64,000 nucleotides of DNA, from contig JAGNKY010000015.1 in assembly GCA_017999895.1 (NCBI GenBank), positions 4,278 through 68,277 on the forward strand. The letters are read 5' to 3'. The stretch is from Bacteroidales bacterium (lineage in GTDB: Bacteria; Bacteroidota; Bacteroidia; Bacteroidales; VadinHA17). The position numbers and the translations under genes were made by a program. Each line of letters begins with the position of its first letter. Position 1 is the first letter of the stretch. Under the pieces are notes generated by a model. It searched no databases, was not told where the DNA came from, and saw nothing but the letters and a program-made list of their open reading frames with translations. Of this stretch, positions 1 to 16,034 are shown in pieces.

Positions 1-21
1 GTTCGATTCCCCTTATCTCCA
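1..21 (+). tRNA. 3' end of a tRNA gene truncated by the window edge; isotype not determinable
   Basis: T-loop consensus GTTCGATT at 1-8, T-stem 3' half CCCCT (9-13), 7-nt acceptor strand TATCTCC (14-20) and discriminator A21. No encoded CCA. The anticodon lies outside the window. Confidence 0.6.
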
Positions 22-159
22 CATAAAACAGAGTTAGCGTGAGAGCTGAAAGCCTTGATTGTCGAAAGAACGTCAGGGCAAGAGCGGGCACTCTCATTCT
101 GTTTTCTCACACTCACATTGATCTTCAGGCATTAAATTTTTACTAATGTTAAACCAATG

Positions 160-214: not shown

Positions 215-3200
215 ATGCCCAAAATCTTTGATAATATTTCTTTACACCTGAAAACAGGATTATTAGAGACACTGGAAAGCTCCTACAGCGCTGACTTTTG
301 TGTTGGCTATTTCAATCTTCGTGGCTGGAAATTATTAATGAATCATATTGACCATTTTAAAGGTAATGATGGTTGTTGCCGACTACTTATAGGTATGCAA
401 AGTCCTGATGAAAGTCTATTGCGTTTAGCATTAAGCGAAACAAAAAAAGGAATGATGGACAATCCTACCGCATTGGCTTTAAAGAAAGAAATGGCAAAAT
501 CATTTACAAGGCAATTGACTTTTGGAATACCAACAAATGAAGATGAAGAAAGTCTCAGAAAATTAAAATTGCAATTATCTGAAAGAAAAGTAAAAGTAAA
601 ACTGTTTCTTTCATATCCATTGCATGCAAAACTTTATTTGTGCCATAAAAATGACAAAGATGCACCCCTAATAGGATATGTCGGAAGTAGCAATTTAACA
701 ATGGCGGGACTTGTCCAGCAAGGTGAACTTAATGTCAATGTGGTTGAACAGGATGCTGCAGAAAAACTCTATAAATGGTTTGAAGAAAGATGGACAGACC
801 GATGGTGTATTGATATTTCTGAAGAACTAATCCAAATCATTGATGAAAGTTGGGCAGGTGAAAAGAGTATCCCTCCATATCTAATATACTTGAAAATTGC
901 TTACCACCTGTCTCAGGAGGCTCGAAGCGGAATTGGCAATTATATCATTCCTAAGATATTGCAAACAGATCTATTGCCTTTCCAGATGAATGCTGTAAGT
1001 ATTGCAGCCAGGCATCTTGATAAAAGAGGTGGCGTTCTGATAAGTGATGTAGTTGGATTGGGGAAGACAATGACTGCTACTGCAGTGGCAAAACTTTTTG
1101 AAGAAACATTCTTCACTGAAACATTAATAATATGCCCTAAAAATATCGTTGATATGTGGGAGGACTACGTACATACATATCAATTAAGAGCAAAAGTTCA
1201 CAGCATTTCGAAGATTGACAGGAATTTTCTTGAAAAGACGAGAAGGTACAGAGTAGTTATAATAGATGAAAGCCATAATTTAAGAAACAGAGAAGGCAAA
1301 CGTTATGCAATTGTTAAAGAATATATTGAAAAGAATGAAAGCAGGGTTATTTTAATAACTGCAACCCCTTACAATAAAAGTTATTTAGATATTTCAAACC
1401 AGCTCCGGCTGTTTATCCCTGAAGATAAAGATATTGGAATTTCACCGGAACAATTTTTGCGGGAAGTGGGAAGCCCTATTGAGTTTATTGCTAAATACCA
1501 GTATTCACCAAATACTTTATTAGCTTTTGAAAAAAGTAGTTTTTCAGAAGACTGGCAGGAACTGCTCAAACTATACATGGTACGACGCACCAGAACATTT
1601 ATAAAAGAAAATTATGCAACATACGATCCGGTAAAAAAACAATATTATTTGACCTTTAATGATGGAAGAATAGAATATTTTCCAGATAGAATTCCAAAAA
1701 AAATTGAATACTCTTTTGATCCTCATGATAAGGACAATATTTATGTAAAACTCTATGACGATGAAATCGTAAATATTATAAACAACTTGTACCTGGCCCG
1801 GTATGGTCTTGGAAATTACATTGATAAAGAAAAAGAAGAAGAGGCAACACCTGAAGAAAAACGAATTATCAATAATTTAAGCCGGGCCGGAAAACGCCTG
1901 ATGGGGTTTTGCAGGACAAACCTGTACAAAAGACTCGAAAGCTCAGGATTCTCGTTCCTTATCTCTTTGGCCAGGCATGTTTTACGAAATCACATCTTTA
2001 TTTATGCAATTGAAAACGGTCTCCCAATACCAATTGGCCAGCAGGAAACAATTGAAATGGATGAATTTCTTGAAGAGAATGATAATACCGACAATGTTCA
2101 ACTTAATCTTATTACTGATGTCAGCGAATACAAAAAGCTTGCGAAAAGATATTACGAAAATTATGTAGCTGAAAAAAATAAATATGACTGGATATCAAGT
2201 ATACTTTTTAAAGATTCACTTAAAGAATTACTACTAAATGATGCAGATAATATTATTTCAATAATTCAAATTGGAAAAAACTGGAATCCGGACGAAGATA
2301 AACAACTTAATTCTCTCGAAAAACTATGCAGTATAGACCATAAAAATGAAAAGATTCTTATATTTACTCAATTCGCAGACACTGCAGTATATCTTTATGA
2401 ACAACTTCAGAAGAGGGGCATAAAAGAAATTGCATGTGCAACCGGGAATCTTGAAAATCCTACCGAACTTGCACATAGATTTAGCCCCATAAGTAATAAA
2501 ATCGAAAATGTTAAAGACGAAATTCGTACATTAATTAGTACAGACGTCTTAAGTGAAGGCCAGAATCTGCAGGATGCCCATATAATTGTAAATTACGACT
2601 TGCCGTGGGCAATTATCCGGCTGATTCAAAGAGCAGGCCGTGTTGATAGGATCGGACAAACTTCGGATAAAATTTTATGCTATTCATTTTTGCCACAGGA
2701 CGGACTTGAAAGAATTATCAGACTAAGAAACCGTCTAACACAGAGAATAAGGGAAAACGCCGAAACTGTGGGCGCCGATGAAATATTTTTTGACGGTGAT
2801 CCTGTAAATATTCAGGACTTATACAATGAAAAAGCAGGTATCCTGGATGATGAAGAAGGAGATGTCGATCTTACTTCCGAGGCTTATGAAATATGGAACC
2901 AGGCAATTAAGGCTAATCCTGATTTAAAAAAGAAAGTCACTAAACTTCCTGACGTTGTTTATTCAACTAAACAGAAACAGCAGGAAGATTTCATAAGTAA
3001 CAGCATAATAACTTATCACAGAAACAGCCGTGGTTTTGAAGTACTTACATGGCTTGACGAAAACGGCAGTATAATTTCTACCAGCCAGTCTAGAATTTTA
3101 AAAGTAGCGGAATGTTCACTTGATACTCCTGCAGTTGAAAAGTTACCCAATCATCATGAACTTGTCAAACAATCTGTAATGATTGCTGAAAAAGAAGCAG

Positions 3201-3526
3201 CAAAATCAGGCGGTCAGCTCGGAAGCAAGTCAAGTGCAAGGTATAAAGCTTATGGTATTCTTACTCGTTATTACGAAAGCGTCAAAAATACTCTTTTTGA
3301 TATTGATGCACTTAAGAAAACTATTAATGATATTTATCACTATCCTTTGCGTGAAACAGCAAGGGAAATTATTAATCGCCGTATTAAACTTGGTTGTTCA
3401 GATGAGGAAATGGCATATTTGTGTATGCAATTACGTGATGAAGGTCGTCTCTGTGTAATAGAACAAAAAGATCAGGATAGTTTTAATACTCCTCAGATAA
3501 TTTGCTCACTGGGAATAAGAAAATAA
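215..3526 (+). CDS. PLD-family (single HKD-type) nuclease domain fused to an SNF2/SF2 helicase, with a ~290-aa uncharacterised C-terminal region
   Basis: 1103-aa ORF. PLD motif HAKLYL...GSSNLT (aa 137-162, nt ~623-700). Helicase motif I DVVGLGKT (GLGKT at nt 1055-1069), motif II DESH (1265-1276), motif III TATP, and motifs V/VI SEGQNLQ...QRAGRVDRIGQ. Confidence 0.85.
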   Translation: MPKIFDNISLHLKTGLLETLESSYSADFCVGYFNLRGWKLLMNHIDHFKGNDGCCRLLIGMQSPDESLLRLALSETKKGMMDNPTALALKKEMAKSFTRQLTFGIPTNEDEESLRKLKLQLSERKVKVKLFLSYPLHAKLYLCHKNDKDAPLIGYVGSSNLTMAGLVQQGELNVNVVEQDAAEKLYKWFEERWTDRWCIDISEELIQIIDESWAGEKSIPPYLIYLKIAYHLSQEARSGIGNYIIPKILQTDLLPFQMNAVSIAARHLDKRGGVLISDVVGLGKTMTATAVAKLFEETFFTETLIICPKNIVDMWEDYVHTYQLRAKVHSISKIDRNFLEKTRRYRVVIIDESHNLRNREGKRYAIVKEYIEKNESRVILITATPYNKSYLDISNQLRLFIPEDKDIGISPEQFLREVGSPIEFIAKYQYSPNTLLAFEKSSFSEDWQELLKLYMVRRTRTFIKENYATYDPVKKQYYLTFNDGRIEYFPDRIPKKIEYSFDPHDKDNIYVKLYDDEIVNIINNLYLARYGLGNYIDKEKEEEATPEEKRIINNLSRAGKRLMGFCRTNLYKRLESSGFSFLISLARHVLRNHIFIYAIENGLPIPIGQQETIEMDEFLEENDNTDNVQLNLITDVSEYKKLAKRYYENYVAEKNKYDWISSILFKDSLKELLLNDADNIISIIQIGKNWNPDEDKQLNSLEKLCSIDHKNEKILIFTQFADTAVYLYEQLQKRGIKEIACATGNLENPTELAHRFSPISNKIENVKDEIRTLISTDVLSEGQNLQDAHIIVNYDLPWAIIRLIQRAGRVDRIGQTSDKILCYSFLPQDGLERIIRLRNRLTQRIRENAETVGADEIFFDGDPVNIQDLYNEKAGILDDEEGDVDLTSEAYEIWNQAIKANPDLKKKVTKLPDVVYSTKQKQQEDFISNSIITYHRNSRGFEVLTWLDENGSIISTSQSRILKVAECSLDTPAVEKLPNHHELVKQSVMIAEKEAAKSGGQLGSKSSARYKAYGILTRYYESVKNTLFDIDALKKTINDIYHYPLRETAREIINRRIKLGCSDEEMAYLCMQLRDEGRLCVIEQKDQDSFNTPQIICSLGIRK

Positions 3527-3533
3527 GAATCCT

Positions 3534-6500
3534 ATGAATGCAATAAGTAAGCAAGAATTTAAAAGGTATATAGAAAGTTTCGATTTTGTAAATCTTTTTA
3601 ATCAGTTAGGGTGGACTTATATTGATGAACAATTCCCGGTTAAGCTAAAAGAAGAAACCTATTTGTTTAATTGTGTTGCGGAAAAAAGCGGATTCAGGAT
3701 TATAGTTTTTAAACCTGCAAATGAAAACTATCTCCCTGATTATGCCACACGCCTGCAACTTGACAGGCAAATCGGGAAATTATTCCGTGAACATCTTATT
3801 ATTTTCTGCGATAATGCCAATACGATTCAAATATGGCAATTGTCTGTAAAGAGACTTGGCAAACCAACACGTCTTAGCGAAACACGATGGTATAAAGGAC
3901 AGGAACCTGAATTGTTGTATCAAAAAGCATCAAATTTATTCTTTACTCTTGATGAAGAGGACAAAATTACTATTGCTGATGTCGTAGACAGAGTGAATGA
4001 AAACTTCAGCAGGAATGTTGAACAGGTAACCAAAAAGTTCTATGAGAGATTCAGAAAAGAGCATGAAAACTTTCTTCAATTTATTACAGGAATCTCAAAT
4101 ATAACAGATCAGGAATGGTATGCATCTCTGATGCTTAACCGTTTGATGTTCTGCTATTTCATTCAGAAAAAAGGATTTCTTGACAATAATCTGAATTATC
4201 TTAAAGACAAGCTCAACCAGTGTCAGAAAAAAACCGGACGGGATAAATTCTATATAAATTTTTATAAAAGCTTTCTTCTTATATTATTCCATAGAGGACT
4301 TGGCGCTCCTGAACATACAGAAGAAATCAGGAAAGAATTCGGCACCATACCTTATCTGAACGGAGGTCTTTTCGATGTTCATGAACTTGAAAAAAAATAC
4401 GCCGATATAGATATTAAGGATGATGCTTTTGAGGCTATATTTAATTTCTTCGATCAGTATAACTGGCATCTCGATACAAGAATTACAGCAACAGGCAGAG
4501 ATATTAACCCTGATGTAATAGGTTATATTTTTGAAAAATATATTAACGACCGTGCTCAGATGGGGGCTTATTATACAAAGGAAGACATTACAGATTACAT
4601 AAGTAAGAATTGCATTATACCTTTCCTTTTTGATGAAACAGAACGAAAGTATCCGAAAGCTTTTAAAGAGGATGCATGGATATGGCAGATGCTCAGGGAA
4701 TCGGGCGATACTTACATATATGATGCGCTTAAAAAAGGTATTGATATCAATATTCTTGATTTCAATACAAATATCAGCATTGACGACCATGACCACCCCC
4801 TCTGGTCTGACATGCCTGATGATATTCGTGCCGGTTTCCGCCCTGAAATTCAGGATAAGACAGTATTAGCTGATGATCATCCTCATTTATGGGAAATTAG
4901 AAAACCATGGAACCAACAGGCTCCTGAAGCCATTGCATTACCAGCAGAAATTTACCGTGAACTTATTGAACGTCGCAAAAGGTACTGGGAAGTACGAAAA
5001 AAAATTGATGCCGGCGAGATAAACAAGATAAATGATTTCATAACATACAATCTGAATATCCGGCAATTCGCACAGGATATAATTGACAACTCAGACGATC
5101 CTGATCTGATTAAGCATTTTTACGAGGCCCTTATCAACATTACTATTCTTGACCCCACCTGCGGATCAGGCGCCTTTCTTTTTGCTGCATTGAATATTCT
5201 TGAACCACTTTATGAAAGCTGCATAATGCGAATGAGAGCATTCGTTGAAGATGAGGATATTTTAAATGCACATAATAAGAAACACTTTAGCAACAAGTAT
5301 AAGTATTTCAGAGATGTGCTTTGCATTATTCAGAATCCCCAGCATCCGAATCTCTCATATTTTATTTATAAAAGTATCATTCTCCGAAATCTTTATGGTG
5401 TTGATATAATGAAAGAGGCAGTCGAAATTGCTAAACTTCGTCTGTTTCTAAAGCTTGTCGCGACGGTTGATCCTGATTACAATAAACCAAACCTTGGCCT
5501 TGAACCCCTGCCTGATATTGACTTCAATATTAGGGCAGGTAATACTTTAATAGGATATGCTTCACAAAAGGAAATTGAAGAATTACAGGGGCTGTTTATC
5601 ACGCCAAAAATGAAGGAGGATATACTCGAAGAGTGCGATGTTGTTGCCATGGCATTCAGGCGTTTTAAAGAGCTGCAACTGAAAGGTTATGAAAACAAAA
5701 AAGAGTTTACAGAAGCAAAAAATGAGCTAAACAAACGATTAAAAAAATTGAGTGGCAACCTGAACAAAATTTTACATAAGCAATATTACGAGGGATTGGA
5801 TTATAACAAATGGGAGATCACTCATCAACCTTTCCATTGGTTTGCTGAATTCTATGAGATAATTAATAATAATGGTGGGTTTGATGTGGTGATTGGAAAT
5901 CCACCTTATGTCCAATATTCATCTAATAACTTTGCTTATAAAATTGAAGATACAATTTATGAAACTTACTCTTCTTATAATCTTTATTCATATGTTTTTG
6001 AAAGGAGCCAATCGTTAATTAATAATAAAGCATGGAGTGGTATGATTGTTCAAATAAGCTGTTTATCCACTCCAACTATGGAAACAATGCGACAAAGAAT
6101 GACAAAAAATAGTTCAGTTTTGTTTTTATCTAATTATGCTACTAGACCAGCCTTTTTATTTGAAGGCGTCACAATGAACCTAACTATTATTATCAATCAA
6201 AAGAAAAATAATTCTAATCCTTTAATATACTCATCAAAATATCAAAGATGGTTTAATGAAACTCGTAAGTATCTTTTTGAATCAATAACATATACTGAAG
6301 TGAAGAATGAAAATATTTATTTTAAATACGCTATACCAAAGTTTTCAAATTTCAATGAGAATGTAATAATCAAAAAAATTTTGCGAACTCATAGTAATAT
6401 TGGTAAATACTTAGAACAAACACGAAAAAAAACCACACAACAAATGTTCTACAGAACTGCAGGCGGAAGATATTTCAAAATATTTATTGATAGAGACTTT

Positions 6501-6929
6501 GGCAGTGAGAGTAAAAGCAATAAATCAAAATATTTTAGTAATGAAACAAATGTTTATGAATTTATTACTGTTTTATCTTCTAATACTTGGTGGTGGTGGT
6601 ATACTTTACATTTTGACATGTATAATTGTAAAGACTACATGTTATTTACTTTTCCATATAAATACCTTAATAATGATTCTTTGATAAATTATGGGTATAC
6701 TCTTTGTAAAGACCTTTTATCTAAAGCAGAAAATAAAATACAAAGTTATGAAACAACAGGGAAAAGGTCACAATTAATTTTTACTCCATCAAAATCAAAA
6801 TATATCATAGATAATATAGACCAAATCTTAGCCGAGCATTACGGTTTCACTGAGGAGGAGCTGGATTTTATTATTAATTACGACATAAAATACAGGATGG
6901 GGCATGATGCAGAAAATAATGAAGATTAG
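3534..6929 (+). CDS. Large gamma-class N6-adenine DNA methyltransferase (Eco57I/PglX/DrmMI-like) with a long N-terminal region and a C-terminal putative target-recognition region
   Basis: 1131-aa ORF starting 7 nt after the upstream stop. AYYTKEDI motif (nt ~4566), AdoMet motif I ILDPTCGSGAFLF (D at 5151), NIRAGNTLIG, and catalytic NPPY (5898-5909). No nuclease motif recognised by eye. Confidence 0.85.
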   Translation: MNAISKQEFKRYIESFDFVNLFNQLGWTYIDEQFPVKLKEETYLFNCVAEKSGFRIIVFKPANENYLPDYATRLQLDRQIGKLFREHLIIFCDNANTIQIWQLSVKRLGKPTRLSETRWYKGQEPELLYQKASNLFFTLDEEDKITIADVVDRVNENFSRNVEQVTKKFYERFRKEHENFLQFITGISNITDQEWYASLMLNRLMFCYFIQKKGFLDNNLNYLKDKLNQCQKKTGRDKFYINFYKSFLLILFHRGLGAPEHTEEIRKEFGTIPYLNGGLFDVHELEKKYADIDIKDDAFEAIFNFFDQYNWHLDTRITATGRDINPDVIGYIFEKYINDRAQMGAYYTKEDITDYISKNCIIPFLFDETERKYPKAFKEDAWIWQMLRESGDTYIYDALKKGIDINILDFNTNISIDDHDHPLWSDMPDDIRAGFRPEIQDKTVLADDHPHLWEIRKPWNQQAPEAIALPAEIYRELIERRKRYWEVRKKIDAGEINKINDFITYNLNIRQFAQDIIDNSDDPDLIKHFYEALINITILDPTCGSGAFLFAALNILEPLYESCIMRMRAFVEDEDILNAHNKKHFSNKYKYFRDVLCIIQNPQHPNLSYFIYKSIILRNLYGVDIMKEAVEIAKLRLFLKLVATVDPDYNKPNLGLEPLPDIDFNIRAGNTLIGYASQKEIEELQGLFITPKMKEDILEECDVVAMAFRRFKELQLKGYENKKEFTEAKNELNKRLKKLSGNLNKILHKQYYEGLDYNKWEITHQPFHWFAEFYEIINNNGGFDVVIGNPPYVQYSSNNFAYKIEDTIYETYSSYNLYSYVFERSQSLINNKAWSGMIVQISCLSTPTMETMRQRMTKNSSVLFLSNYATRPAFLFEGVTMNLTIIINQKKNNSNPLIYSSKYQRWFNETRKYLFESITYTEVKNENIYFKYAIPKFSNFNENVIIKKILRTHSNIGKYLEQTRKKTTQQMFYRTAGGRYFKIFIDRDFGSESKSNKSKYFSNETNVYEFITVLSSNTWWWWYTLHFDMYNCKDYMLFTFPYKYLNNDSLINYGYTLCKDLLSKAENKIQSYETTGKRSQLIFTPSKSKYIIDNIDQILAEHYGFTEEELDFIINYDIKYRMGHDAENNED

Positions 6930-6943
6930 CAAATATTATTAAC

Positions 6944-8647
6944 ATGGAAATAAAGCATCTTAGAATTCTGAATTTCAGAGGAATAAAAGAATTAGACTGG
7001 TTTCTTCCGGGGAAATACATTTGTCTCATCGGTCATGGTGATTCATGTAAAACAACTATACTTGATGCTATTGAATATGCTCTTTATCCATCATATACAC
7101 TCTCATTTGACGATTCTGATTTTTATAATTGCAGTACAGAAAATCCTATTGTAATTTTCGTTTCTGTTTCAGACTGTCCGGCCGATTTTTACGAAGAAAC
7201 AAAATTCGGAATGTACCTTAGAGGCATAAAAGACAATAAGATTATCGACGAGCCGGAAGAAGGATCAATTCAAATTCTTACAATTAAACTATCAGTAAAT
7301 AAATCTCTTGAACCTGAATGGATATTATTTACAGATAGGGAAATGGAACGAAAAGAAATTTCCCATAAAATGCGTGAGAAATTGAGTATTTTGCGTGTTG
7401 GTAACCAGATCGAGAAACATTTTACTTGGGGCAAAGGATCTGTTCTTAATAAATGGTCTGATAATATAGATCAGGCAAGAGCAATGATTGCCGATGCAGT
7501 CAGAAAAGCAAAAGAAGGTTTTGATGAAGACAAGATTCCGGATCTTCAAAGCATAATTGAAAAAATATCAAAAACATCTGAAAAATTTGGAATAAGACCG
7601 AAAACCGGATATAAAGCTCAACTTGATACAAAATCTATTTCATTTGGTTATGGAGCAATTTCTATAAACGACGACAAAATACCGGTAAGACAATTTGGTT
7701 CAGGTTCAAAAAAACTGCTTGCTTCAGGCCTTCAAGTTGAAAGTACTAACGAAGGAGCTATTTTGCTTTTTGATGAAATTGAAACTGGTTTAGAACCTTA
7801 TAGACTAAGAAATTTAATAAGGGTTTTAAAGAGAGAATTAGAAAGTAAAGGGCAGATAATAGCAACAACTCATTCATCAGTAGCATTAGTTGAATTTGAT
7901 GCGGCTAATATTGTTATTGTAAGAAATAATGCCGGAATTATTAACTGCCAAACCTTGCCAACAGATATTCAAAAAGAATTTCAGGGTGTATTCAGAAAAG
8001 TACCTGAGGCTTTTTTTGCAAAGAATGTAATTGTTTGTGAAGGAGCAACAGAATATGGATTTTTGCTTGCTTTTGAAGAATATTTGACAGGTATTGGTTA
8101 TGATAATTTTGGTTATCAGGGAGTTACAATTGTCAATGGACAAGGTGATACTTTAAAGCAAATATGTAAAGGGCTTACTTCACTTGGGTATAATACATGC
8201 GTAATTATTGATTCTGATAAAATCAAGAAAGAAGAAATTGAAGCGCTCAGAAAATCTAATATTAAAGTAATCATTTGGAATGACCAGGTTTCTATTGAAG
8301 AAAGGATATTTCTCGATGTTCCAAAGGAATTAATTATTGAAACTATCAATTTAGCTTATGGTTTACTATCAGACGAAATTGGAGAAGAACCGGCAAGACA
8401 GAGCATAATTGATGTCATAAATTCTAAATTACACACTTCCTACTCAACATTTAATGAAATTGTTGAACATTCTGATATAACCGAATTAAGGAAAGATCTT
8501 GGAATAGTTGCAAATGATAAGAAATGGTTTAAAAAAGTCTATAAAGGGAAGTGCCTTGGTTCATTAGTTTTTGGAAGTTTTGATAAAATAAAAAGTACTG
8601 ACATCTATTCGAAAATGTACGATCTAATAAAATGGATCTATGGATAA
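6944..8647 (+). CDS. OLD-family ABC-type ATPase + Toprim nuclease (class 2 OLD / Gabija GajA-like)
   Basis: 567-aa ORF, 14 nt after the upstream stop. P-loop GHGDSCKT (7031-7054), signature-like FGSGSKKLL, and Walker B LLFDEIE (DE at ~7772). Toprim Glu in VIVCEGATE (8039-8041) and DSD in VIIDSDK (8210-8218). Confidence 0.8.
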   Translation: MEIKHLRILNFRGIKELDWFLPGKYICLIGHGDSCKTTILDAIEYALYPSYTLSFDDSDFYNCSTENPIVIFVSVSDCPADFYEETKFGMYLRGIKDNKIIDEPEEGSIQILTIKLSVNKSLEPEWILFTDREMERKEISHKMREKLSILRVGNQIEKHFTWGKGSVLNKWSDNIDQARAMIADAVRKAKEGFDEDKIPDLQSIIEKISKTSEKFGIRPKTGYKAQLDTKSISFGYGAISINDDKIPVRQFGSGSKKLLASGLQVESTNEGAILLFDEIETGLEPYRLRNLIRVLKRELESKGQIIATTHSSVALVEFDAANIVIVRNNAGIINCQTLPTDIQKEFQGVFRKVPEAFFAKNVIVCEGATEYGFLLAFEEYLTGIGYDNFGYQGVTIVNGQGDTLKQICKGLTSLGYNTCVIIDSDKIKKEEIEALRKSNIKVIIWNDQVSIEERIFLDVPKELIIETINLAYGLLSDEIGEEPARQSIIDVINSKLHTSYSTFNEIVEHSDITELRKDLGIVANDKKWFKKVYKGKCLGSLVFGSFDKIKSTDIYSKMYDLIKWIYG

Positions 8648-10040
8648 AGAAGAAACCACGCCGGAGTTATTGGCTAGACAAGAAAGAGCAGTAGTGGTTG
8701 CGCCTGCAGGATGTGGTAAAACTCATATAATTGCCGAATCAATAAAATATACTGAAGGCAGGCAGCTAATTCTTACGCATACCCATGCCGGTGTTCATTC
8801 AATACGTAACAAACTTATTAAACTCCAGATTCCTTCAAACAAATACAGGGTTGAAACCATTGCTGGATTTGCTCTAAGGTATGCTTCGTCCTATCCAAAG
8901 ATATGTGGTTATGATCTGTTCAATGATGATCAGATCGTCATATATGATAATCTGTATTCTGCGGCAGAAAATGTAATAAGAACCATTTTCGGCAGAAAGA
9001 TTATCAATTCCACTTATTCAGGCCTTTTTGTAGATGAATATCAGGATTGTACAATTGACCAGCATAAACTTATTCTTACACTTTCCGAAATTCTGCCCAC
9101 ACGCATTTTAGGAGATCCGCTTCAGGGGATTTTTGAATTTACAAAAAATCAAGTTAACTGGAATAAGGATATTTTTCAATTTTATATTCAATTACCGGAT
9201 CTGACTACACCCTGGAGATGGAAAAACAACAATAGCGATCTGGGGGCATGGCTATTCGATATAAGGCATAATATTGAATCAAATGAAAATATATATTTAT
9301 CAAAATTGCCATCGAATACAAAATGGTTTATCAATGAATGGCGAAATCAGATAAATCAATTGTTTTATAGCAAAGGAGATACTGTAGGAATAATTGATAT
9401 TGATAATAGAGCTCATAAAATAGCATCATGTTTAAAAGGTAATTATAATTCTATGGAAGAAATGGAAAGGAGAACTTTATTCAAGTTTATTAACAAATTT
9501 GAGAAAAGCTCCAGAAAAGAAAAAATATTAGAAATATTTAGCATTGCTTCAAAATGCATTACTAAAATAAAGAATGAATTAAAACCAATAAGGATATGTT
9601 TAGAAAGAGATAAAAGGTACAATGGGAAAAATGAAACCTTAAAATCATTTTACTTCTTAATAGATAATTATTTAAGAACTGGAAATAACATTTTAATATT
9701 AGAACTTATAAGATTGGTTAGCTCTTTTGAAAATAGTAACATTTACAGAAAAGAACTATGGATGGATATTGAAAAGATATTTTCTTCATCTGTTTTAAAC
9801 CCAGAAGAAAGTCTTAAAAATATTGCCCGAAAATACCTTGAGACTTATAGTATTATCGGAAGAAAAGTTTATAGAAAAACAATTTCCCGACCACACCTGA
9901 TTAAAGGTCTTGAGTTTAACCATGCTATTTTATTAGATGCAGATGCGCTGAAGCCTAAAGAATTATATGTTTCTTTAACAAGGGGGAGTAACTACCTGAC
10001 TATTTTGTCAAAGCAGAGAGTATTAACGCCAAAAAATTAA
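8640..10040 (+). CDS. Short UvrD/PcrA-like SF1 helicase (Gabija GajB-like)
   Basis: 466-aa ORF overlapping the upstream stop by 8 nt (ATGGATAA). Walker A APAGCGKT (8700-8723) and motif II DEYQD (9033-9047). C-terminal UvrD_C-like KGLEFNHAILLD...YVSLTRGSNYLTIL. Confidence 0.8.
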   Translation: MDKEETTPELLARQERAVVVAPAGCGKTHIIAESIKYTEGRQLILTHTHAGVHSIRNKLIKLQIPSNKYRVETIAGFALRYASSYPKICGYDLFNDDQIVIYDNLYSAAENVIRTIFGRKIINSTYSGLFVDEYQDCTIDQHKLILTLSEILPTRILGDPLQGIFEFTKNQVNWNKDIFQFYIQLPDLTTPWRWKNNNSDLGAWLFDIRHNIESNENIYLSKLPSNTKWFINEWRNQINQLFYSKGDTVGIIDIDNRAHKIASCLKGNYNSMEEMERRTLFKFINKFEKSSRKEKILEIFSIASKCITKIKNELKPIRICLERDKRYNGKNETLKSFYFLIDNYLRTGNNILILELIRLVSSFENSNIYRKELWMDIEKIFSSSVLNPEESLKNIARKYLETYSIIGRKVYRKTISRPHLIKGLEFNHAILLDADALKPKELYVSLTRGSNYLTILSKQRVLTPKN

Positions 10041-10226
10041 ATCGTCATTAATATAACAAGTAATCAAGTAATAAAGTAATAATAAGATATATGACTGACA
10101 ATAAATTTACATTTTTATAAATTTTCGCCGATTGAAATTAATTTCAAACTAAATGAGGTATGAACATTATATGTTTAATTACACTGAAAATAAGAATATT
10201 GACCTGCCACCATAAATGAATGATAA

Positions 10227-10328
10227 TCTCGCCAAATACTCGCCATTTTGGCGAGATAAGTTATAATAATTCATTAGAATCAAATTATCTCGCCAGATCA
10301 TGTGTTTTTTGGCGAGATAATTTATAAT
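10227..10328 (+). promoter_or_regulatory. Two tandem copies (61-bp period) of a palindrome TCTCGCCA-N14-TGGCGAGA, each followed by TAA(G/T)TTATAAT
   Basis: Copy 1 stem arms are at 10227-10234 and 10249-10256; copy 2 arms are at 10288-10295 and 10310-10317. The conserved tails are at 10257-10267 and 10318-10328. The element sits in the 365-bp gap between the helicase gene and the DprA-like gene. Confidence 0.5.
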
Positions 10329-10405
10329 GATTGAAATGCAAAAAAAATTGCAAAATAAAAAACGGCACGTTATCACAATAAAAAGATTGAAGGATAAGCA
10401 ACTAA

Positions 10406-10870
10406 ATGGAAATCATTGACAATATAGGTAACATAGAACTACTGAAACTACATAAAACAGCATTTCTTTGCAGCCGCTCAATACCTGCTTCTGTTGTTCT
10501 TAAGTGTTACGATTGGGCAATTGAGCAAAGAGAAGCAGGAAATTGTATAATTGGCGGTTTTCACAGCCGGATTGAAAAAGATGTTTTGCATTATCTGTTA
10601 AAAGGCACCCAGCCTATTATCATCGCCCTTGCAAGAGGATTGCCAGACAAACCAGCAACTGAATTTATTAAACCATTGAATAAAGGAAGATTACTAATAA
10701 TCACACCTTTTGAAAAATCAATAAGCCGGGTTACACAACAAACGGCAGAAATAAGAAACAAAATGATGATAGAATTAGCTGACAGTATAGCTATTGGCCA
10801 TGCAAGTTCAGGTGGTATGATTGAAAGAATCCTGAATTCTTCCGGTAAACCTATAACTAAAATCTATTAA
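10406..10870 (+). CDS. Stand-alone DprA/Smf-like Rossmann-fold (SLOG superfamily) protein
   Basis: 154-aa ORF. The pattern GGFHSRIEKDVL..LLKG.QPIIIALARGL ... GRLLIITPF ... IRNKMMIELADSIAIGHASSGG parallels the DprA core (SG.A.GID..AH...G..iaVl..Gl...G.llSE...RNRiia.ls..vvvvea...SG). Assigned from motif memory only. Confidence 0.55.
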   Translation: MEIIDNIGNIELLKLHKTAFLCSRSIPASVVLKCYDWAIEQREAGNCIIGGFHSRIEKDVLHYLLKGTQPIIIALARGLPDKPATEFIKPLNKGRLLIITPFEKSISRVTQQTAEIRNKMMIELADSIAIGHASSGGMIERILNSSGKPITKIY

Positions 10871-11094: not shown

Positions 11095-11454
11095 ATGCAA
11101 ACGTTATTTAAGCATTTAACTACTGAGGAAGTAGAAGTATTTGACGAGCATGGCAGGAAATATAAAAAGAGAGAATTTGAAATACACAGATCTCGAAGAT
11201 TACATTGGATTCGACCTCATATTGAAGAAATTGTCAAAGAAATTATAAACGTTTTTAGCACAGAAGAGAGAAATAAAGGTAAAACTGTGTTTCGTACCTA
11301 CATATACAATATTAAAGAAAAGTATGTGATTGTTATGGAGCCACAACGTAGTAAGGCGGATTATTACCTTTTATCGGCATACTATTTACACAAACCTTAT
11401 GGTGAAAAGGAAATGATAAAAAAACTTAAAAAGAAACTTCCGGACATTTTATAA
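11095..11454 (+). CDS. Small basic hypothetical protein (119 aa)
   Basis: Intact ORF with no motif I can name. Its last ~24 nt plus downstream sequence are duplicated at 12806-12941. Confidence 0.45.
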   Translation: MQTLFKHLTTEEVEVFDEHGRKYKKREFEIHRSRRLHWIRPHIEEIVKEIINVFSTEERNKGKTVFRTYIYNIKEKYVIVMEPQRSKADYYLLSAYYLHKPYGEKEMIKKLKKKLPDIL

Positions 11455-11571
11455 AACGCAGAAGACGGTACATATCAAGATGTATCGTCCTCCGAAACTC
11501 CTTCTTCCTAAGTAAGGAAAGATGAGCATAACAAATATAATAATAAATAGAATAATACCAAATAAATATAT
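11431..11571 (+). repeat. Direct repeat, copy 1 (~141 bp)
   Basis: Near-identical to 12806-12941 (shared AAGAAACTTCCGGACATTTTATAAAACGCAGAAGA...AATAATACCAAATAAATATAT). Contains a 10-bp-stem hairpin GACGGTACAT-ATCAAG-ATGTATCGTC with one G:T pair. Confidence 0.9.
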
Positions 11572-11586
11572 AAAAATTAACATTTA

Positions 11587-12422
11587 ATGGAAACGTTTGA
11601 TTCAACCAAAACAAGTCTTTATGATATCTTGGAAGATATTAATAAGGGGAAAATTCAGCTTCCTGATTTTCAGCGTGGCTGGGTGTGGGACGACAACCGC
11701 ATAAAAGGCATCATTGCAAGCGTGGCAAAACAGCCTCATTCGCCTCTGAAGAGTTTGATTTAAAGGCCGACTGGTTAAAAATTAAATCGGAATTCAAACC
11801 TTATAGAATCCTCGATAAAACAAGCAATATCGATATTATCCAGGCAATAACAATCTATTCAACTTATCAGAAGAGAAAAGAACTTGAGACAAATTTTACC
11901 CCTTCCCGCCTGCATACATTACGTACAAGAAATAGTGCCGCTTACAAGGGTGTTTATGCATTATTATTGGAAGATAACACAAAAGACTGGCTCTCCGCCA
12001 CGAAGATTGATTTCAGTACTTACTTTTCAGAGTCTGTTGATATTCATCATATCTTCCCCGTAGCATGGTGTGAGAAGAAGGAAAACAATATTCCACGGAA
12101 TGACTATGACTGCATTGTTAATAAAACGCCGCTTTCAGGTAGAACAAACCAGATAGTTAGCGGCGATGCCCCAAGTAAATATCTTGAACGCCTTAAAAAG
12201 CACGCAAGGGTTCCAGATGTTGAATTTGATGCCATACTGAAATCTCATGCTCTTAATCCTGATTTCTTGTACGGTGATGATTTCAATGTATTCTTTGCTG
12301 ACAGGAAGGAGCGGATACTATCGAAAATTGAGGCAGCAATGGGGAAGCCCATTGTCCGGAGTCAGACAGAATCAGAAGAAGGGAAATTTATTGATAATGA
12401 TATTGAAGAAATTATTGAATAA
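11587..12422 (+). pseudogene. Internally deleted GmrSD-type DUF262-DUF1524 (ParB-like NTPase + His-Me/HNH nuclease) gene remnant
   Basis: The ATG at 11587 opens a 58-codon frame, METFDSTKTSLYDILEDINKGKIQLPDFQRGWVWDDNRIKGIIASVAK, which carries the DUF262 signature QLPDFQRGWVWD and stops at 11761-11763. A different frame (ORF 11685-12422) carries a DUF1524-like C-terminus, DIHHIFPVAW...NKTPLSGRTNQ. Roughly 1 kb of the middle is missing. Confidence 0.7.
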
Positions 12423-12600
12423 AGAATATGCAAGTTGAATAATCCGGTCCAAACTGAGCCACCCGTTCCGCATTAAATTGGACCACTTATTCCTCCTCTT
12501 TCCGCGTTGGGGAAACCCGGACAAGTCAAATAATTTTGTTAATTTATAATTTCATTCCCTGTTACATATAAAGCAATAGGAATGTAACTACAAAAATACT

Positions 12601-12624
12601 TTTGTTCCCCGTCAGGGGAACAAA
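12601..12624. other. Perfect 10-bp-stem hairpin with a tetraloop (TTTGTTCCCC-GTCA-GGGGAACAAA)
   Basis: Read directly from the sequence. It is the first of four GC-core mini-hairpins spaced ~40-60 nt apart; the others are at ~12660-12672, 12701-12713 and 12758-12771. Confidence 0.7.
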
Positions 12625-12757
12625 ATCATTAGATTAACATACACACAAAAGATTATTATTCCCCGTAGGGGATAAACATTTTTTGCCATAATTTTATTAA
12701 TGTCCTACGGACAAACGCAGAAAAATTTAATAATAATGTCCCGTCTATGAAACTATA

Positions 12758-12779
12758 AGCCCTGACGGGCTAATTTTTT
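12758..12779 (+). terminator. Candidate intrinsic terminator
   Basis: AGCCC-TGAC-GGGCT followed by AATTTTTT. The stem is short (5 bp). Confidence 0.4.
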
Positions 12780-12805
12780 CATTTGCTTTTGCTGCTTTTA
12801 TCTGT

Positions 12806-12941
12806 AAGAAACTTCCGGACATTTTATAAAACGCAGAAGAGGGTACATATAAAGATGAATCGTCCTCCGAAACTCCTTCTTCCTAAGTAAGAAAAGATGA
12901 GCATAACAAATATAATATAGAATAATACCAAATAAATATAT
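12806..12941 (+). repeat. Direct repeat, copy 2 (~136 bp)
   Basis: Matches 11431-11571 with a few substitutions and a small indel. The internal hairpin is degraded in this copy. Confidence 0.9.
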
Positions 12942-13206
12942 GTAGTGTAAATAATTTTATGCAACTGAATATAATTTAGTCAATAGCAGAACCCATGAAA
13001 ATATGTATTAATTCCACATGACCAGGTTTCAAAGAATAAGAGTCTCAGAATGGTTATAAATCCGAATATTTTATAATTACTTCAACTCGATGTCTTCAGC
13101 GTCTAATTCAAAAACCATTTGTCCTCGTTGGTGAAAATATTTCTGCGTGACTTTAATGAAAGTGCTCTGTCTCTTTAATGTTTTTGTACAAATTATGAGT
13201 ATTTTT

Positions 13207-13380
13207 TTAAGGTCAGAATCAGAGTGAACATTAAAATGTGCGATTTTTAACGTTTGATCCGGAATATGAATGAACTTTTAAGGTCAAAATCTAAGTAAAT
13301 ATTAAAATATGGATTTTTTAATGTATGATACGAATTATGAATGTATTCTTAAAGTCAAAAGCAAAAGATTTATTAATTCA
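13207..13380 (+). repeat. Tandem repeat, 71-bp period, ~2.4 imperfect copies
   Basis: Units start at 13207, 13278 and 13349 (TTAAGGTCARAATC.A.GT.AA.ATTAAAAT.TG.GATTTTT.AA.GT.TGAT...GAAT.ATGAATG). Located upstream of the CDS that starts at 13474. Confidence 0.75.
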
Positions 13381-14819: not shown

Positions 14820-16034
14820 ATGTTTTATCATCTGAATATTATGACCTCCGATTACCGTATAGTGCCTGTTTACAATGCAAAAGGAATTATTATAATAATT
14901 ATTCTTGCAATAATTGACATGTATCCAAGCGCTCTTTCTGCATGGGTATATTGCCAGCCACTTTCAGTATCAATAAGTGTAATTTTAACACTTTCTCTCA
15001 TCGCTTTCTTCTATCTCTCCGGTATAACCATTCCGTTTGAGTTATCTGAAAAAATTAATATGGGCCGCTCGAAATATGAAATAATAAAATATATTTTTGC
15101 ACAAACTCTTATTTATGTGGTAGTTGGCATGTGTATTGCCAACATCACAAGAGTAAACAAAGACCTTACGGGGTTCAACTCTTCTGTCTGGGCTATATTG
15201 TTGGTTATATCTATTTTCCTTATCTGGAACCATTATCCCGATAAAGAAAACAACTTTTTCACTGTGAGCGGCCTGAGGTTTTTTGGACTCCTTATTCTTG
15301 TTTTTCTGGTCTTTAAATTCAAATCGGGTAACTACGAAAACAATGGTTCACTTATTGCAGGCTATTGGGAACTTCCCGGACTCTACGGGTGGGGTTTCCT
15401 CATCGCATCACTTGCATGGCTTTTACTACGTAACTCTATAACAGGAACATCTATAATATGGCTCTTCTTTATTGCTCTGAATATTATATGCGCACTTGGA
15501 ATGACCAGTTCCCTCGACCCGACAAGAAAATATCTGGGAATTCTTATAGATGGTTTCATTCCTTCGGCATTCATTGCCGGAGTTATAACCGGAATATTTA
15601 TCAGAAGAAGCCCTGTTTCTTTCTGGACTAAAATGTCACTAATTATTGCAGCCGCTGGTATAGTTTTAACTGCCACTGGAATTATAATTGGCAAATTCTT
15701 CCCTCTCACAGTCACTTTTAATAATAATCCGGCATGGGCTCTCGCAGGAACCGGGATTGCATCACTTTTTTTTATTCTGTTTTTCTATCTGCATGAAGTC
15801 AGAAAAATTTCATTTCCTGCCCGCTTGTTCGAATCAGCAGGAACAAATTTCTTTACAGCCTATATAATCATTTTTCTTGTTTATAGTATTATAAACCTGT
15901 CAGGCATTGATATCCTGATATATAAAAACTCGTCTCTTGCACTTGTAAAAACCGGCGGGTCGATCATTTTTTCACTGCTTATTACCATACTTGTCACTGC
16001 AATGGCAAGAGCTGGTATCAGACTAAAATTATAA
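14820..16034 (+). CDS. Polytopic integral membrane protein, function unknown
   Basis: ~404-aa ORF with at least 10 hydrophobic segments. The start is uncertain (TTG at 14817 or ATG at 14820). Confidence 0.6.
   Translation: MFYHLNIMTSDYRIVPVYNAKGIIIIIILAIIDMYPSALSAWVYCQPLSVSISVILTLSLIAFFYLSGITIPFELSEKINMGRSKYEIIKYIFAQTLIYVVVGMCIANITRVNKDLTGFNSSVWAILLVISIFLIWNHYPDKENNFFTVSGLRFFGLLILVFLVFKFKSGNYENNGSLIAGYWELPGLYGWGFLIASLAWLLLRNSITGTSIIWLFFIALNIICALGMTSSLDPTRKYLGILIDGFIPSAFIAGVITGIFIRRSPVSFWTKMSLIIAAAGIVLTATGIIIGKFFPLTVTFNNNPAWALAGTGIASLFFILFFYLHEVRKISFPARLFESAGTNFFTAYIIIFLVYSIINLSGIDILIYKNSSLALVKTGGSIIFSLLITILVTAMARAGIRLKL

Follow-up and report, generated by a model that had tools for sequence, protein, structure and literature searches.

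Near the start of a 64,000-nucleotide stretch of Bacteroidales bacterium DNA (contig JAGNKY010000015.1, positions 4,278 to 68,277; hereafter called the window), five genes for defense-related proteins lie in a row on the same strand. Our favored interpretation, to which we assign a probability of about 0.7, is that these genes make up two autonomous defense systems nested in a mobile island beside a transfer-messenger RNA (tmRNA) gene. Genes 3 and 4 (gajA and gajB) are a Gabija pair that is carried as cargo within a host system composed of genes 1, 2, and 5. A sequence-only reading of the same DNA had described the first four genes as one operon and had left two possibilities, namely two independent systems placed in one array or a single composite machine. 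The comparative data support the former possibility, in the form of Gabija nested inside a gene 1-2-5 unit. That reading had missed two features: the unit runs on to a fifth gene, and the window opens with the 3′ end of the tmRNA gene.

The first four genes are co-directional open reading frames (ORFs) with ATG starts, and they code for proteins of 1103, 1131, 567, and 466 amino acids. The spacing noted by the sequence-only reading can be read directly from the DNA: the intergenic gaps are 7 and 14 nucleotides, and gajA and gajB overlap by 8 nucleotides (ATGGATAA). Because all four proteins give strong, near full-length family matches in Pfam and PADLOC, they represent real genes and not chance ORFs. 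Their catalytic motifs are intact. The 7- and 14-nucleotide gaps are too short to contain a terminator, and weak terminator-like hairpins are located within genes, at positions 3343-3366 and 6842-6863. Given the tight, co-directional packing, Gabija is probably co-transcribed with the host genes, but common transcription is no proof of a common mechanism. A scan for sigma-70 promoters yielded 69 sites compared to 61.3 ± 7.8 in shuffled sequences, and the Bacteroidota −7 motif TAnnTTTG is present at chance level (70 sites, where 78 would be expected), and the regions upstream of genes 1 and 5 contain no match to it on the + strand. Since both promoter scans are at chance, no transcript model is offered.

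The assignment of genes 3 and 4 to Gabija, which the sequence-only reading had proposed, holds when the proteins are run against PADLOC. GajA matches model PDLC04168 (GajA) with an E value of 5.8e-170 over residues 1-566, and GajB matches PDLC04173 (GajB) with an E value of 1.1e-127. Pfam recognizes AAA_15/AAA_21 and OLD-like_TOPRIM in GajA and UvrD-helicase in GajB. The motifs include Walker A (GHGDSCKTT), DEIE, and the Toprim residues E366 and D423/D425 in GajA, and GCGKT and DEYQD in GajB. In the family alignment of GajA, Walker A/B, E366, and D423/D425 are invariant. The window pair has in common with Gabija of Bacillus cereus VD045 an OLD-family ABC ATPase-Toprim gene that is followed by an overlapping gene for a short UvrD-like helicase. 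Thus, both features of Gabija that can be checked in sequence, the ABC ATPase-Toprim GajA and the downstream UvrD-like GajB, are found. The window pair differs in its wide divergence from the B. cereus proteins of solved structure, and in being embedded rather than free-standing. A phmmer search of GajA against the solved B. cereus proteins produced no match at E < 1e-3, and GajB matches solved B. cereus GajB with an E value of 1e-5 over one motif.

According to published work, B. cereus Gabija is an autonomous nucleotide-sensing nuclease-helicase complex. Relatives of the window GajA were collected from 80 genomic loci by an alignment-based scan, which was needed because a single-sequence scan of genomes found no relatives. 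In 78 of these loci, where GajA is 33-41% identical to the window protein, neither gene 2 nor gene 5 is located nearby. GajB directly follows GajA in 76 of the 78, and across the 80 loci it does so wherever the contig allows. These results show Gabija of this subfamily to be a self-contained pair.

Gene 1 codes for a protein with a single-HKD phospholipase D (PLD) domain (residues ∼20-195), a Swi2/Snf2 ATPase (∼250-850), and a conserved C-terminal region. Pfam matches are PLDc_2, RE_NgoFVII, SNF2-rel_dom, and Helicase_C. PADLOC reports ‘HKD+Snf2’ (1e-47), together with weak matches to HmaA (2e-22) and PLD_Helicase (1.8e-18). The motifs HAK...GSSN (HKD), GLGKT, DESH, and QRAGRxDRIGQ can be read in the protein, and H137/K139/GSSN, GxGKT, DESH, and motif VI are invariant across the family. 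More than 8000 homologues exist, with full-length examples in many phyla and more than 600 genomic loci. When the low-confidence AlphaFold2 (AF2) model of the full-length protein was compared by Foldseek, RapA was returned first, followed by other generic SNF2 motors, and SauUSI was missing from the top 50 matches. Given the poor model and the generic nature of these matches, no global architecture like that of SauUSI or MtsD is claimed.

Gene 2 codes for a gamma-class N6-adenine DNA methyltransferase of the Eco57I/MmeI type (Pfam Eco57I, 6e-29; MmeI_Mtase). Motif X (GAYYT) is at residue 344, motif I (DPTCGSGAF) at 542, and motif IV (NPPY) at 789. A conserved N-terminal module of ∼340 amino acids precedes a methyltransferase core with large insertions. 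This module is encoded as a separate ORF in one related locus (L170; homologous loci are cited by such labels where needed), and it is the only part of gene 2 that is conserved in loci with a different methylase body. The best PADLOC model for gene 2 is REase_MTase_IIG (PDLC03628, 3e-272). Among residues 1-165 of 30 homologues, only W27 and W101 are invariant, whereas E86 and D93 are each present in 24 of 30; no conserved PD-(D/E)xK triad is found in this region, and no ExK follows E86 or D93. Therefore, the Type IIG label given by PADLOC is not evidence of an intrinsic nuclease. A profile of the N-terminus searched against the PDB gave only a marginal match to the MmeI spacer (E = 0.33). Most simply, the nuclease of the host system would be supplied by gene 1 rather than by gene 2. 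We also observed an in-frame stop within the N-terminal module of two gene 2 homologues (L004 14198-15616 and L007 6522-7895), which could reflect pseudogenes or errors in the assembly of metagenome-assembled genomes (MAGs).

The product of gene 5 is a bare DprA-type Rossmann domain, with no SAM, HTH, or MoCo-like parts. The six best matches of its profile in the PDB are all DprA or ShosA, as are the 14 best Foldseek matches (probability 1.0, E = 2e-5 to 1e-3) of its AF2 model, which has a pLDDT (predicted local distance difference test) score of 73. PADLOC matches it to PsyrA (4.5e-9), and PF02481 is recorded for many of its homologues. By profile search, gene 5-like ORFs were located in 33 loci, all of the gene 1 type, where they are always co-directional with and downstream of gene 2. 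The same search found such an ORF in 0 of the ∼80 loci fetched through GajA. Gene 5 is present in 29 of 52 gene 1-type loci that have at least 8 kb of downstream sequence. Three gene 5 homologues picked solely for lying on long contigs (L251, L252, and L253) all come after a PLD-SNF2 gene and an Eco57I/MmeI methylase gene.

The extent of the host unit is evident from 80 loci with gene 1 relatives of 45-57% identity, which are the best 80 of more than 600. These loci represent Bacteroidota, Chloroflexota, Cyanobacteriota, Pseudomonadota, Planctomycetota, Patescibacteria, and others, for a total of more than 15 phyla. In all 76 of the loci that extend beyond gene 1, its neighbor is a gene 2 relative, and relatives of GajA and GajB are found in none of the 80. 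What is conserved is not the four-gene array but gene 1, gene 2, and the DprA-like gene 5, and Gabija interrupts this set.

The place of interruption is a variable slot between gene 2 and gene 5. Among 30 non-redundant loci that have both genes, the interval is 200 bp or less in 10 and ranges from 0.8 to 7.2 kb in 20, with some of the shorter intervals partly due to a divergent gene 2 C-terminus. The ORFs in the slot are co-directional and almost all mutually unrelated, and those that were identified are defense genes (Table 1). In the locus with the closest gene 1 relative (L081, 85% identity), the slot holds a gene for a cytidine deaminase-HATPase_c_4 protein, and L252 is alike in this regard. 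The window has a 3.5-kb interval at this position, composed of gajA-gajB and a 365-nucleotide spacer. From comparison of the loci, we take this arrangement to be one state of a polymorphic junction.

Table 1. Features of the window and of the slot between gene 2 and gene 5 in homologous loci (positions with an L label are those of the locus named)
Feature	Position	Strand	Description
Gene 1	215-3526	+	PLD (HKD)-SNF2; predicted motor-nuclease effector of host system
Gene 2	3534-6929	+	N6-adenine methyltransferase; predicted self-marking and target-recognition subunit
Gene 3, GajA	6944-8647	+	OLD-family ABC ATPase and Toprim nuclease; opens embedded Gabija cassette
Gene 4, GajB	8640-10040	+	Short UvrD-like helicase of superfamily 1 (SF1)
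Operator- or hairpin-like element	10223-10332	not assigned	Two tandem 49-nucleotide units
Gene 5	10406-10870	+	Stand-alone DprA/Smf-like Rossmann-domain protein, 154 amino acids
tmRNA (ssrA) 3′ end	1-24	+	Rfam RF00023, model 351-374/374, E = 0.0031; 5′-truncated at window edge
Truncated PDC-M04B homologue	11095-11454	+	PADLOC PDLC04358, 6e-42, profile 59-166/167
Broken GmrSD-type (DUF262/DUF1524) type IV restriction gene	11587-12422	+	‘PDFQRGWVWDD’ and ‘DIHHIFP’ in translations
Slot cargo, L015			GmrSD and Schlafen/AlbA_2-HATPase_c_4 protein
Slot cargo, L017			Dsr1-like protein
Slot cargo, L048			Second Type IIG enzyme
Slot cargo, L026			HEC-01A ABC ATPase
Slot cargo, L010			YhcG/PDC-S02 nuclease
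Slot cargo, L050			SocA/Panacea antitoxin
Schlafen/AlbA_2-HATPase_c_4	L015 20951-22276; L083 13722-15122; L088 15132-16526; L170 11429-12820
Cytidine deaminase-HATPase_c_4	L081 16764-18215; L252 8305-9870

The nearest relatives of the window GajA, at 63-66% identity, are located in L083/L087 (a Rikenellaceae MAG), L085, L088, and L170. In L083, L085, L088, and L170, genes 1 and 2 come first and are followed, in some cases after additional genes, by GajA and GajB and then by more cargo (DUF4062, Schlafen-HATPase_c_4). Gene 5 follows the cargo in three of these loci, and the L085 contig ends earlier. GajAB in related loci is co-directional and begins 12-17 nucleotides past the methylase stop. 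The four-gene order is therefore present in at least four other backbones and is not peculiar to this genome, as the sequence-only reading had allowed that it might be. The association of Gabija with the SNF2-methylase pair is recurrent, but as exchangeable cargo.

Evidence for exchange comes from the pairwise identities. The gene 1 proteins of L083, L085, and L088 are 84-91% identical among themselves and 64% identical to that of L170. For GajA, the close pairs are L085 with L170 (84%) and L083 with L088 (85%), and identity across these pairs is ∼66%. This discordance between gene 1 and GajA indicates that the cassette has been exchanged. Genes 1 and 2 of the window are 55% and 53% identical to those of the Gabija-bearing loci, and are no closer to them than to Gabija-free loci of other phyla. 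Furthermore, gene 1 of L004 is 75-76% identical to that of the L083 clade, yet only 36 bp separate genes 2 and 5 in this locus. Most simply, these comparisons would mean that homologous backbones have repeatedly exchanged the cassette, and recombination within their conserved flanks is a plausible route. The identities do not fit a machine of five co-evolving genes.

More distant Gabija relatives are found in other settings. In L167/L168 (GajA 56% identical), GajAB comes after the DrmMI-like methylase of a DISARM-like locus, and in L169 (42%) it lies beside a Type I restriction-modification system and an Mrr gene. L092 (6459-13048) has GajA-GajB immediately after a distant HKD+SNF2 gene, and there is no methylase between the two or in their vicinity. 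The HKD+SNF2 gene is 29% identical to gene 1 and has a better PADLOC HKD+Snf2 match (3e-81) than gene 1 itself. We regard L092 as an independent juxtaposition of an SNF2 gene with Gabija.

The second possibility given by the sequence-only reading was a single composite, modification-dependent system in which the methylase marks self DNA and the PLD-SNF2 protein, GajA, and GajB act as one machine. Such a system would account for the single co-directional, tightly spaced array and for the recurrence of the four-gene order in the four loci named above. However, its halves are abundant apart: the gene 1-gene 2 pair occurs without Gabija in all 80 sampled loci and in the 85% relative, and 78 loci have GajAB but neither gene 2 nor gene 5. 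In addition, unrelated alternative cargo is found at the same position, the GajA and backbone trees are discordant, GajA is set apart from the methylase by extra genes in L170, and GajB is followed by other cargo in L083 and L088. The comparative data thus largely refute a composite system, which we consider highly improbable.

The genomic setting is that of a mobile island. The T-arm and acceptor sequence of tmRNA can be read at the start of the window, and this tmRNA end marks the left border of the defense island. The tmRNA gene is a classic site of island integration. One flanking gene of the window has a 93%-identical counterpart in a Bacteroidales MAG. A Bacteroidales MAG (L171) is 91-96% identical to the window from position 11,570 onward and has none of genes 1-6. 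Because these flanks exist without genes 1-6 and the island abuts tmRNA, the block is considered to be recently mobile DNA in a defense island. The GC content over 1-13 kb is lower than in most of the remaining window. There is no second copy of the tmRNA-end 21-mer in the window, nor any att-like direct repeat of a tmRNA or tRNA end within 3 mismatches, and the right border of the island is consequently not set by a repeat. No integrase was seen in the window. We observed a tyrosine recombinase gene 2.8 kb upstream of gene 1 in L081.

Several observations weigh against the interpretation of Gabija as independent cargo. All six distinct loci with a GajA of at least 56% identity (the window, L083, L085, L088, L170, and L167) adjoin an SNF2 and methylase pair, and in L092 a distant HKD-SNF2 gene sits directly before GajAB. 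Since the Gabija clade of the window is never alone in our sample, functional coupling would fit as well. Moreover, a sample of the best 80 loci at 45-57% identity under-samples Gabija occupancy of the slot in close relatives. With regard to the host unit, ∼44% of the loci with genes 1 and 2 have no gene 5, and this gene is therefore viewed as accessory and not core. The role we propose for its product is drawn by analogy only. Finally, the full-length AF2 model of gene 1 has a pLDDT of 61 and a predicted TM (pTM) score of 0.44.

One form of coupling would be a layered defense, in which Gabija is autonomous but is kept in the slot to cover failure of the host system. The trigger for Gabija could be, for example, an anti-restriction protein, or the DNA ends and nucleotide depletion that arise when the PLD-SNF2 nuclease is inhibited or overwhelmed. 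Comparable cases are known from EcoprrI with its PrrC and from BREX systems with PARIS or BrxU. This explanation overlaps with independent nesting and adds to it a selective reason for co-location. It gains from the fact that the nearest GajAB clade occurs in three SNF2 settings (the gene 1/2/5 backbone, the DISARM-like locus, and beside the distant HKD-SNF2 gene), and from the tight, co-directional packing of GajAB with the methylase. Nested defense cassettes have been reported in Hma, BREX, DISARM, and Type I restriction-modification systems, with 96.7% of them co-oriented (Payne et al. 2024, bioRxiv 10.1101/2024.01.29.577857), and the same backup logic has been published for OLD/Gabija/PARIS modules embedded in such systems (Rakesh & Krishnan 2026, PMC12839542). 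However, the slot also takes cargo for which a backup role is not obvious (for example, a second Type IIG enzyme or the SocA antitoxin), and most GajAB loci adjoin no system of this kind. Recombination between homologous flanks alone can also yield co-location. We therefore judge a backup function to be rather unlikely, although it deserves consideration.

Nesting of Gabija in a distinct host system, the interpretation that we prefer, also requires that genes 1 and 2 are not the remains of a named system. They could be a degenerate or partial DISARM (DrmD/DrmMI) or a partial Hma/BREX-related (BR) type-2/MANTIS system (MtsD/MtsC), with the other genes lost or located outside of the window. Such an origin would explain the weak, partial hidden Markov model (HMM) matches to DrmD, DrmMI, HmaA, and PglX, and also why the combination of HKD-SNF2 with an N6-methyltransferase (N6-MTase) resembles the effector and modifier of BR type 2. 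However, these matches do not come near the cut-offs of the families: the score for NCBIfam DISARM_DrmD is 134 bits (cut-off 610), and that for PglX is 83 (cut-off 500). The PADLOC DrmMI match to gene 2 is partial (4.9e-24, versus 3e-272 for REase_MTase_IIG). The missing genes were looked for in the scanned window ORFs and in the Pfam lists, with 10-kb flanks, of nine loci from L081-L086, L170, and L251-L253. No DUF499 ATPase was found in either set. For DUF3780, the small third gene of the host unit gave no Pfam match even at E ≤ 5, and none was seen in the nine loci. DrmA and DrmB (DUF1998) domains are absent from the ORFs of 1-28 kb and from the homologous loci, and BREX genes are likewise absent. 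The gene 1-gene 2 pair is instead conserved in compact form in different phyla, where none of those genes accompanies it. Descent from a partial named system is thus scarcely plausible. The sequence-only reading was correct that the pair resembles DISARM without being DISARM, and that the DISARM core is lacking.

Comparison with individual systems leads to the same view of the host unit. Class 1 DISARM (DrmD, DrmMI, DrmA, DrmB, DrmC) likewise combines an SNF2 helicase, a large N6-adenine methylase, and a PLD nuclease in one locus, but the window lacks the DrmA and DrmB core, and its PLD domain is fused to the SNF2 protein. DISARM membership was rejected on the missing core and the low DrmD score. 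The DISARM-like locus with embedded GajAB (L167) looks quite different from the window.

The system known as MANTIS, Gao_RL, or BR type 2 (MtsA-D) shares with the window an N-terminal HKD/PLD effector with a superfamily 2 (SF2)/SNF2 motor and a large N6-adenine methylase. In MANTIS, the N6-MTase serves for hemimethylation and site recognition, and the PLD-SF2 effector restricts, with ATP used for restriction. The likeness of the window system is one of architecture, and its HMM matches are weak. MANTIS has its own DUF499 AAA+ ATPase (MtsA) and a small DUF3780/3870 protein (MtsB), both of which are required for methylation and restriction, whereas the window system has a DprA-like protein instead. 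Membership in Hma, BR, or MANTIS was rejected because the defining DUF499 ATPase is absent, and type 2 also for want of DUF3780. The sequence-only reading had likened the array to the Hma gene triads, but this comparison fails at the ATPase: HmaC is a DUF499 AAA+ ATPase (PMC12839542) and not an OLD-type ABC ATPase.

A further comparison is with Type ISP enzymes (LlaGI, LlaBIII). Shared activities are a nuclease, an SF2 translocase, a gamma-class N6-adenine methylase, a target recognition domain (TRD), and ATP-driven translocation. Membership does not follow, since Type ISP enzymes combine everything in one polypeptide, with an Mrr/PD-ExK nuclease, whereas the window system distributes these activities between two ORFs and has a nuclease of the HKD/PLD type. 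In CglI and NgoAVII, the PLD nuclease and helicase are on separate proteins and the methyltransferase is separate as well; the PLD domain of gene 1 matches Pfam RE_NgoFVII. SauUSI targets modified DNA and has no methylase, whereas the window system has one. The DprA Rossmann fold of gene 5 is also found in PsyrA/RqlI of PsyrTA (RqlHI) and in ShosA of ShosTA, but gene 5 is paired with a methylase and an SNF2-nuclease and not with a phosphoribosyltransferase (PRTase)-type toxin. Surveys of embedded cassettes report co-oriented GmrSD, ABC ATPase-Toprim, Schlafen, and other cassettes within helicase/methylase systems, and they have cargo families in common with the window-type slot (HEC-01, HEC-06/GmrSD, OLD/Gabija). 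The window host lies outside of the four surveyed systems, and its cargo occupies a single defined junction between the methylase and the DprA-like gene. No description of a PLD-SNF2, methyltransferase, and DprA/SLOG triad or of its slot was found in the literature, the coverage of which was incomplete, and novelty is unproven. On present comparisons, the host system would operate as ATP-dependent restriction guided by methylation; in architecture it is closest to BR type 2/MANTIS, and it is a distinct, simpler variant with a DprA-like accessory gene.

The following mechanism is proposed for the two systems. Genes 1, 2, and 5 would constitute a restriction-modification-like module. From its NPPY and S-adenosylmethionine (AdoMet) motifs and its MmeI/PglX-type architecture, the gene 2 protein is expected to methylate adenine at its own recognition sites, thereby marking self DNA, and it probably also reports unmodified sites. 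The gene 1 protein would be an SNF2 translocase on double-stranded DNA that carries a single HKD half-site and dimerizes to form one active site, comparable to BfiI, SauUSI, and MtsD. BfiI and MtsD are both single-HKD nucleases that form a dimer with one active site. After ATP-driven translocation, gene 1 would cut unmodified DNA. The N-terminal ∼340 amino acids of gene 2 are the likely docking module for gene 1, given their conservation and their presence as a separate ORF in L170. Gene 5 most likely binds single-stranded DNA (ssDNA), restrains the helicase-nuclease, or both, although it might also assist gene 1, and this is the weakest step of the scheme. The analogy is with RqlI, a DprA-like protein that counters and binds the RecQ-like SF2 helicase RqlH (PMC4670107), with PsyrA, and with ShosA, which is DprA-like, binds ssDNA, and neutralizes ShosT (PMC11961720). 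The gajAB genes would represent a standard Gabija located in the junction between gene 2 and gene 5, a slot that is otherwise empty or filled with unrelated defense cassettes. Gabija would act alone through an ATP/nucleotide-gated Toprim nuclease and a UvrD helicase, a mode of action established with the B. cereus pair.

The spacer before gene 5 contains the tandem units listed in Table 1. Each consists of the perfect palindrome TCTCGCCA-N14-TGGCGAGA followed by TTATAAT. The palindrome motif has 2 matches in the window and 0 in 100 shuffles, and it is found in none of the fetched loci. At the equivalent place in L083 (∼15180-15380), L088 (∼16870-17070), and L170 (∼12800-12925), there are two copies of another repeat, ACCGGAnATTACCGGAT. 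A layout of two repeats upstream of gene 5 therefore recurs across loci with a different sequence. The palindromes were considered as a conserved cassette boundary or attC-like recombination site, but this idea was dropped because the exact motif is unique to the window. The paired repeats look like operators whose sequence co-varies with some regulator, and the cargo may be co-regulated through them. A Schlafen-HATPase_c_4 gene with a winged helix-turn-helix (wHTH) precedes gene 5 in L083, L088, and L170, and the window has no such gene. More generally, proteins that end in HATPase_c_4 recur directly upstream of gene 5, with or without Gabija (Table 1). They may be semi-conserved partners of gene 5 or simply the commonest cargo.

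Other observations concern the slot and the remainder of the host unit. A KilA-N domain gene is located between gene 1 and gene 2 in L251 (5920-6744) and L253 (5282-6097), and gaps of 0.5-2 kb separate these two genes in about a dozen of the 80 loci (for example, L004, L006, L021, L033, L051, and L072). This interval points to a second, rarer insertion point or to an optional fourth component. At L026 15523-19219, the methylase is seemingly split, in that a HEC-01A-type ATPase cassette precedes a 168-amino-acid ORF in which the N-terminal residues 7-65 show 39% identity to the final ∼55 residues of gene 2. Cargo insertion may sometimes occur inside the 3′ end of the methylase gene and not after it. 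Some large ORFs in the slot have no Pfam match (L050 16338-17897, 519 amino acids; L028 16798-18444, 548 amino acids; L017 9329-12247, 972 amino acids), and PADLOC gives no match or only a partial one (Dsr1-like for L017). These are candidate defense genes by ‘guilt by embedding’.

Downstream of gene 5, the window contains remnants of further defense genes. The PDC-M04B homologue is N-terminally truncated and has no PDC-M04A partner, and it is a decayed defense gene outside both systems. The GmrSD remnant is composed of an N-terminal fragment and an out-of-frame C-terminal part, with an internal deletion of ∼610 bp relative to L171, a 93%-identical relative in which GmrSD is intact (8433-9912; GmrSD_N 5e-20). 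A direct repeat of ∼140 nucleotides (11431-11571 and 12806-12941; 94% and 91% in two blocks) flanks this remnant. L171 lacks a segment of ∼720 bp (12434-13154) that holds the second repeat copy, which suggests that a duplication or insertion took place locally. Two tandem 71-nucleotide copies with 73% identity occupy 13194-13335, upstream of and overlapping the annotated start of a DUF3089 gene.

Gabija and the embedding of defense cassettes are already known, and the arrangement described here is not a new principle. It does show that large NTPase, nuclease, and methylase genes, four in this case, need not form a composite machine just because they are packed tightly in the manner of an operon, and that for annotation the Gabija pair and its flanking genes should be treated separately. 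Defense catalogs half-recognize the host system, in that PADLOC labels the methylase as ‘Type IIG’ and treats the helicase as an orphan ‘HKD+Snf2’. We tentatively suggest, at less than even odds, that genes 1, 2, and 5 represent a widespread, unnamed three-component system, a ‘MANTIS without AAA+ loader’, in which a PglX/MmeI-like methylase directs an HKD-SNF2 motor-nuclease and the latter is gated by a DprA-like protein. As part of the same suggestion, the junction between the methylase and DprA-like genes would be a dedicated, recombination-driven slot that moves whole cassettes between distant bacteria. This raises the question of how the methylase is loaded and the nuclease licensed without the AAA+ loader that is obligatory in MANTIS/BR. 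The same junction offers a clearly delimited place from which to search for defense genes by ‘guilt by embedding’, and the DprA-like third gene is a link between restriction-like systems and RqlHI/PsyrTA and ShosTA, in which enzymes that damage DNA are kept in check.

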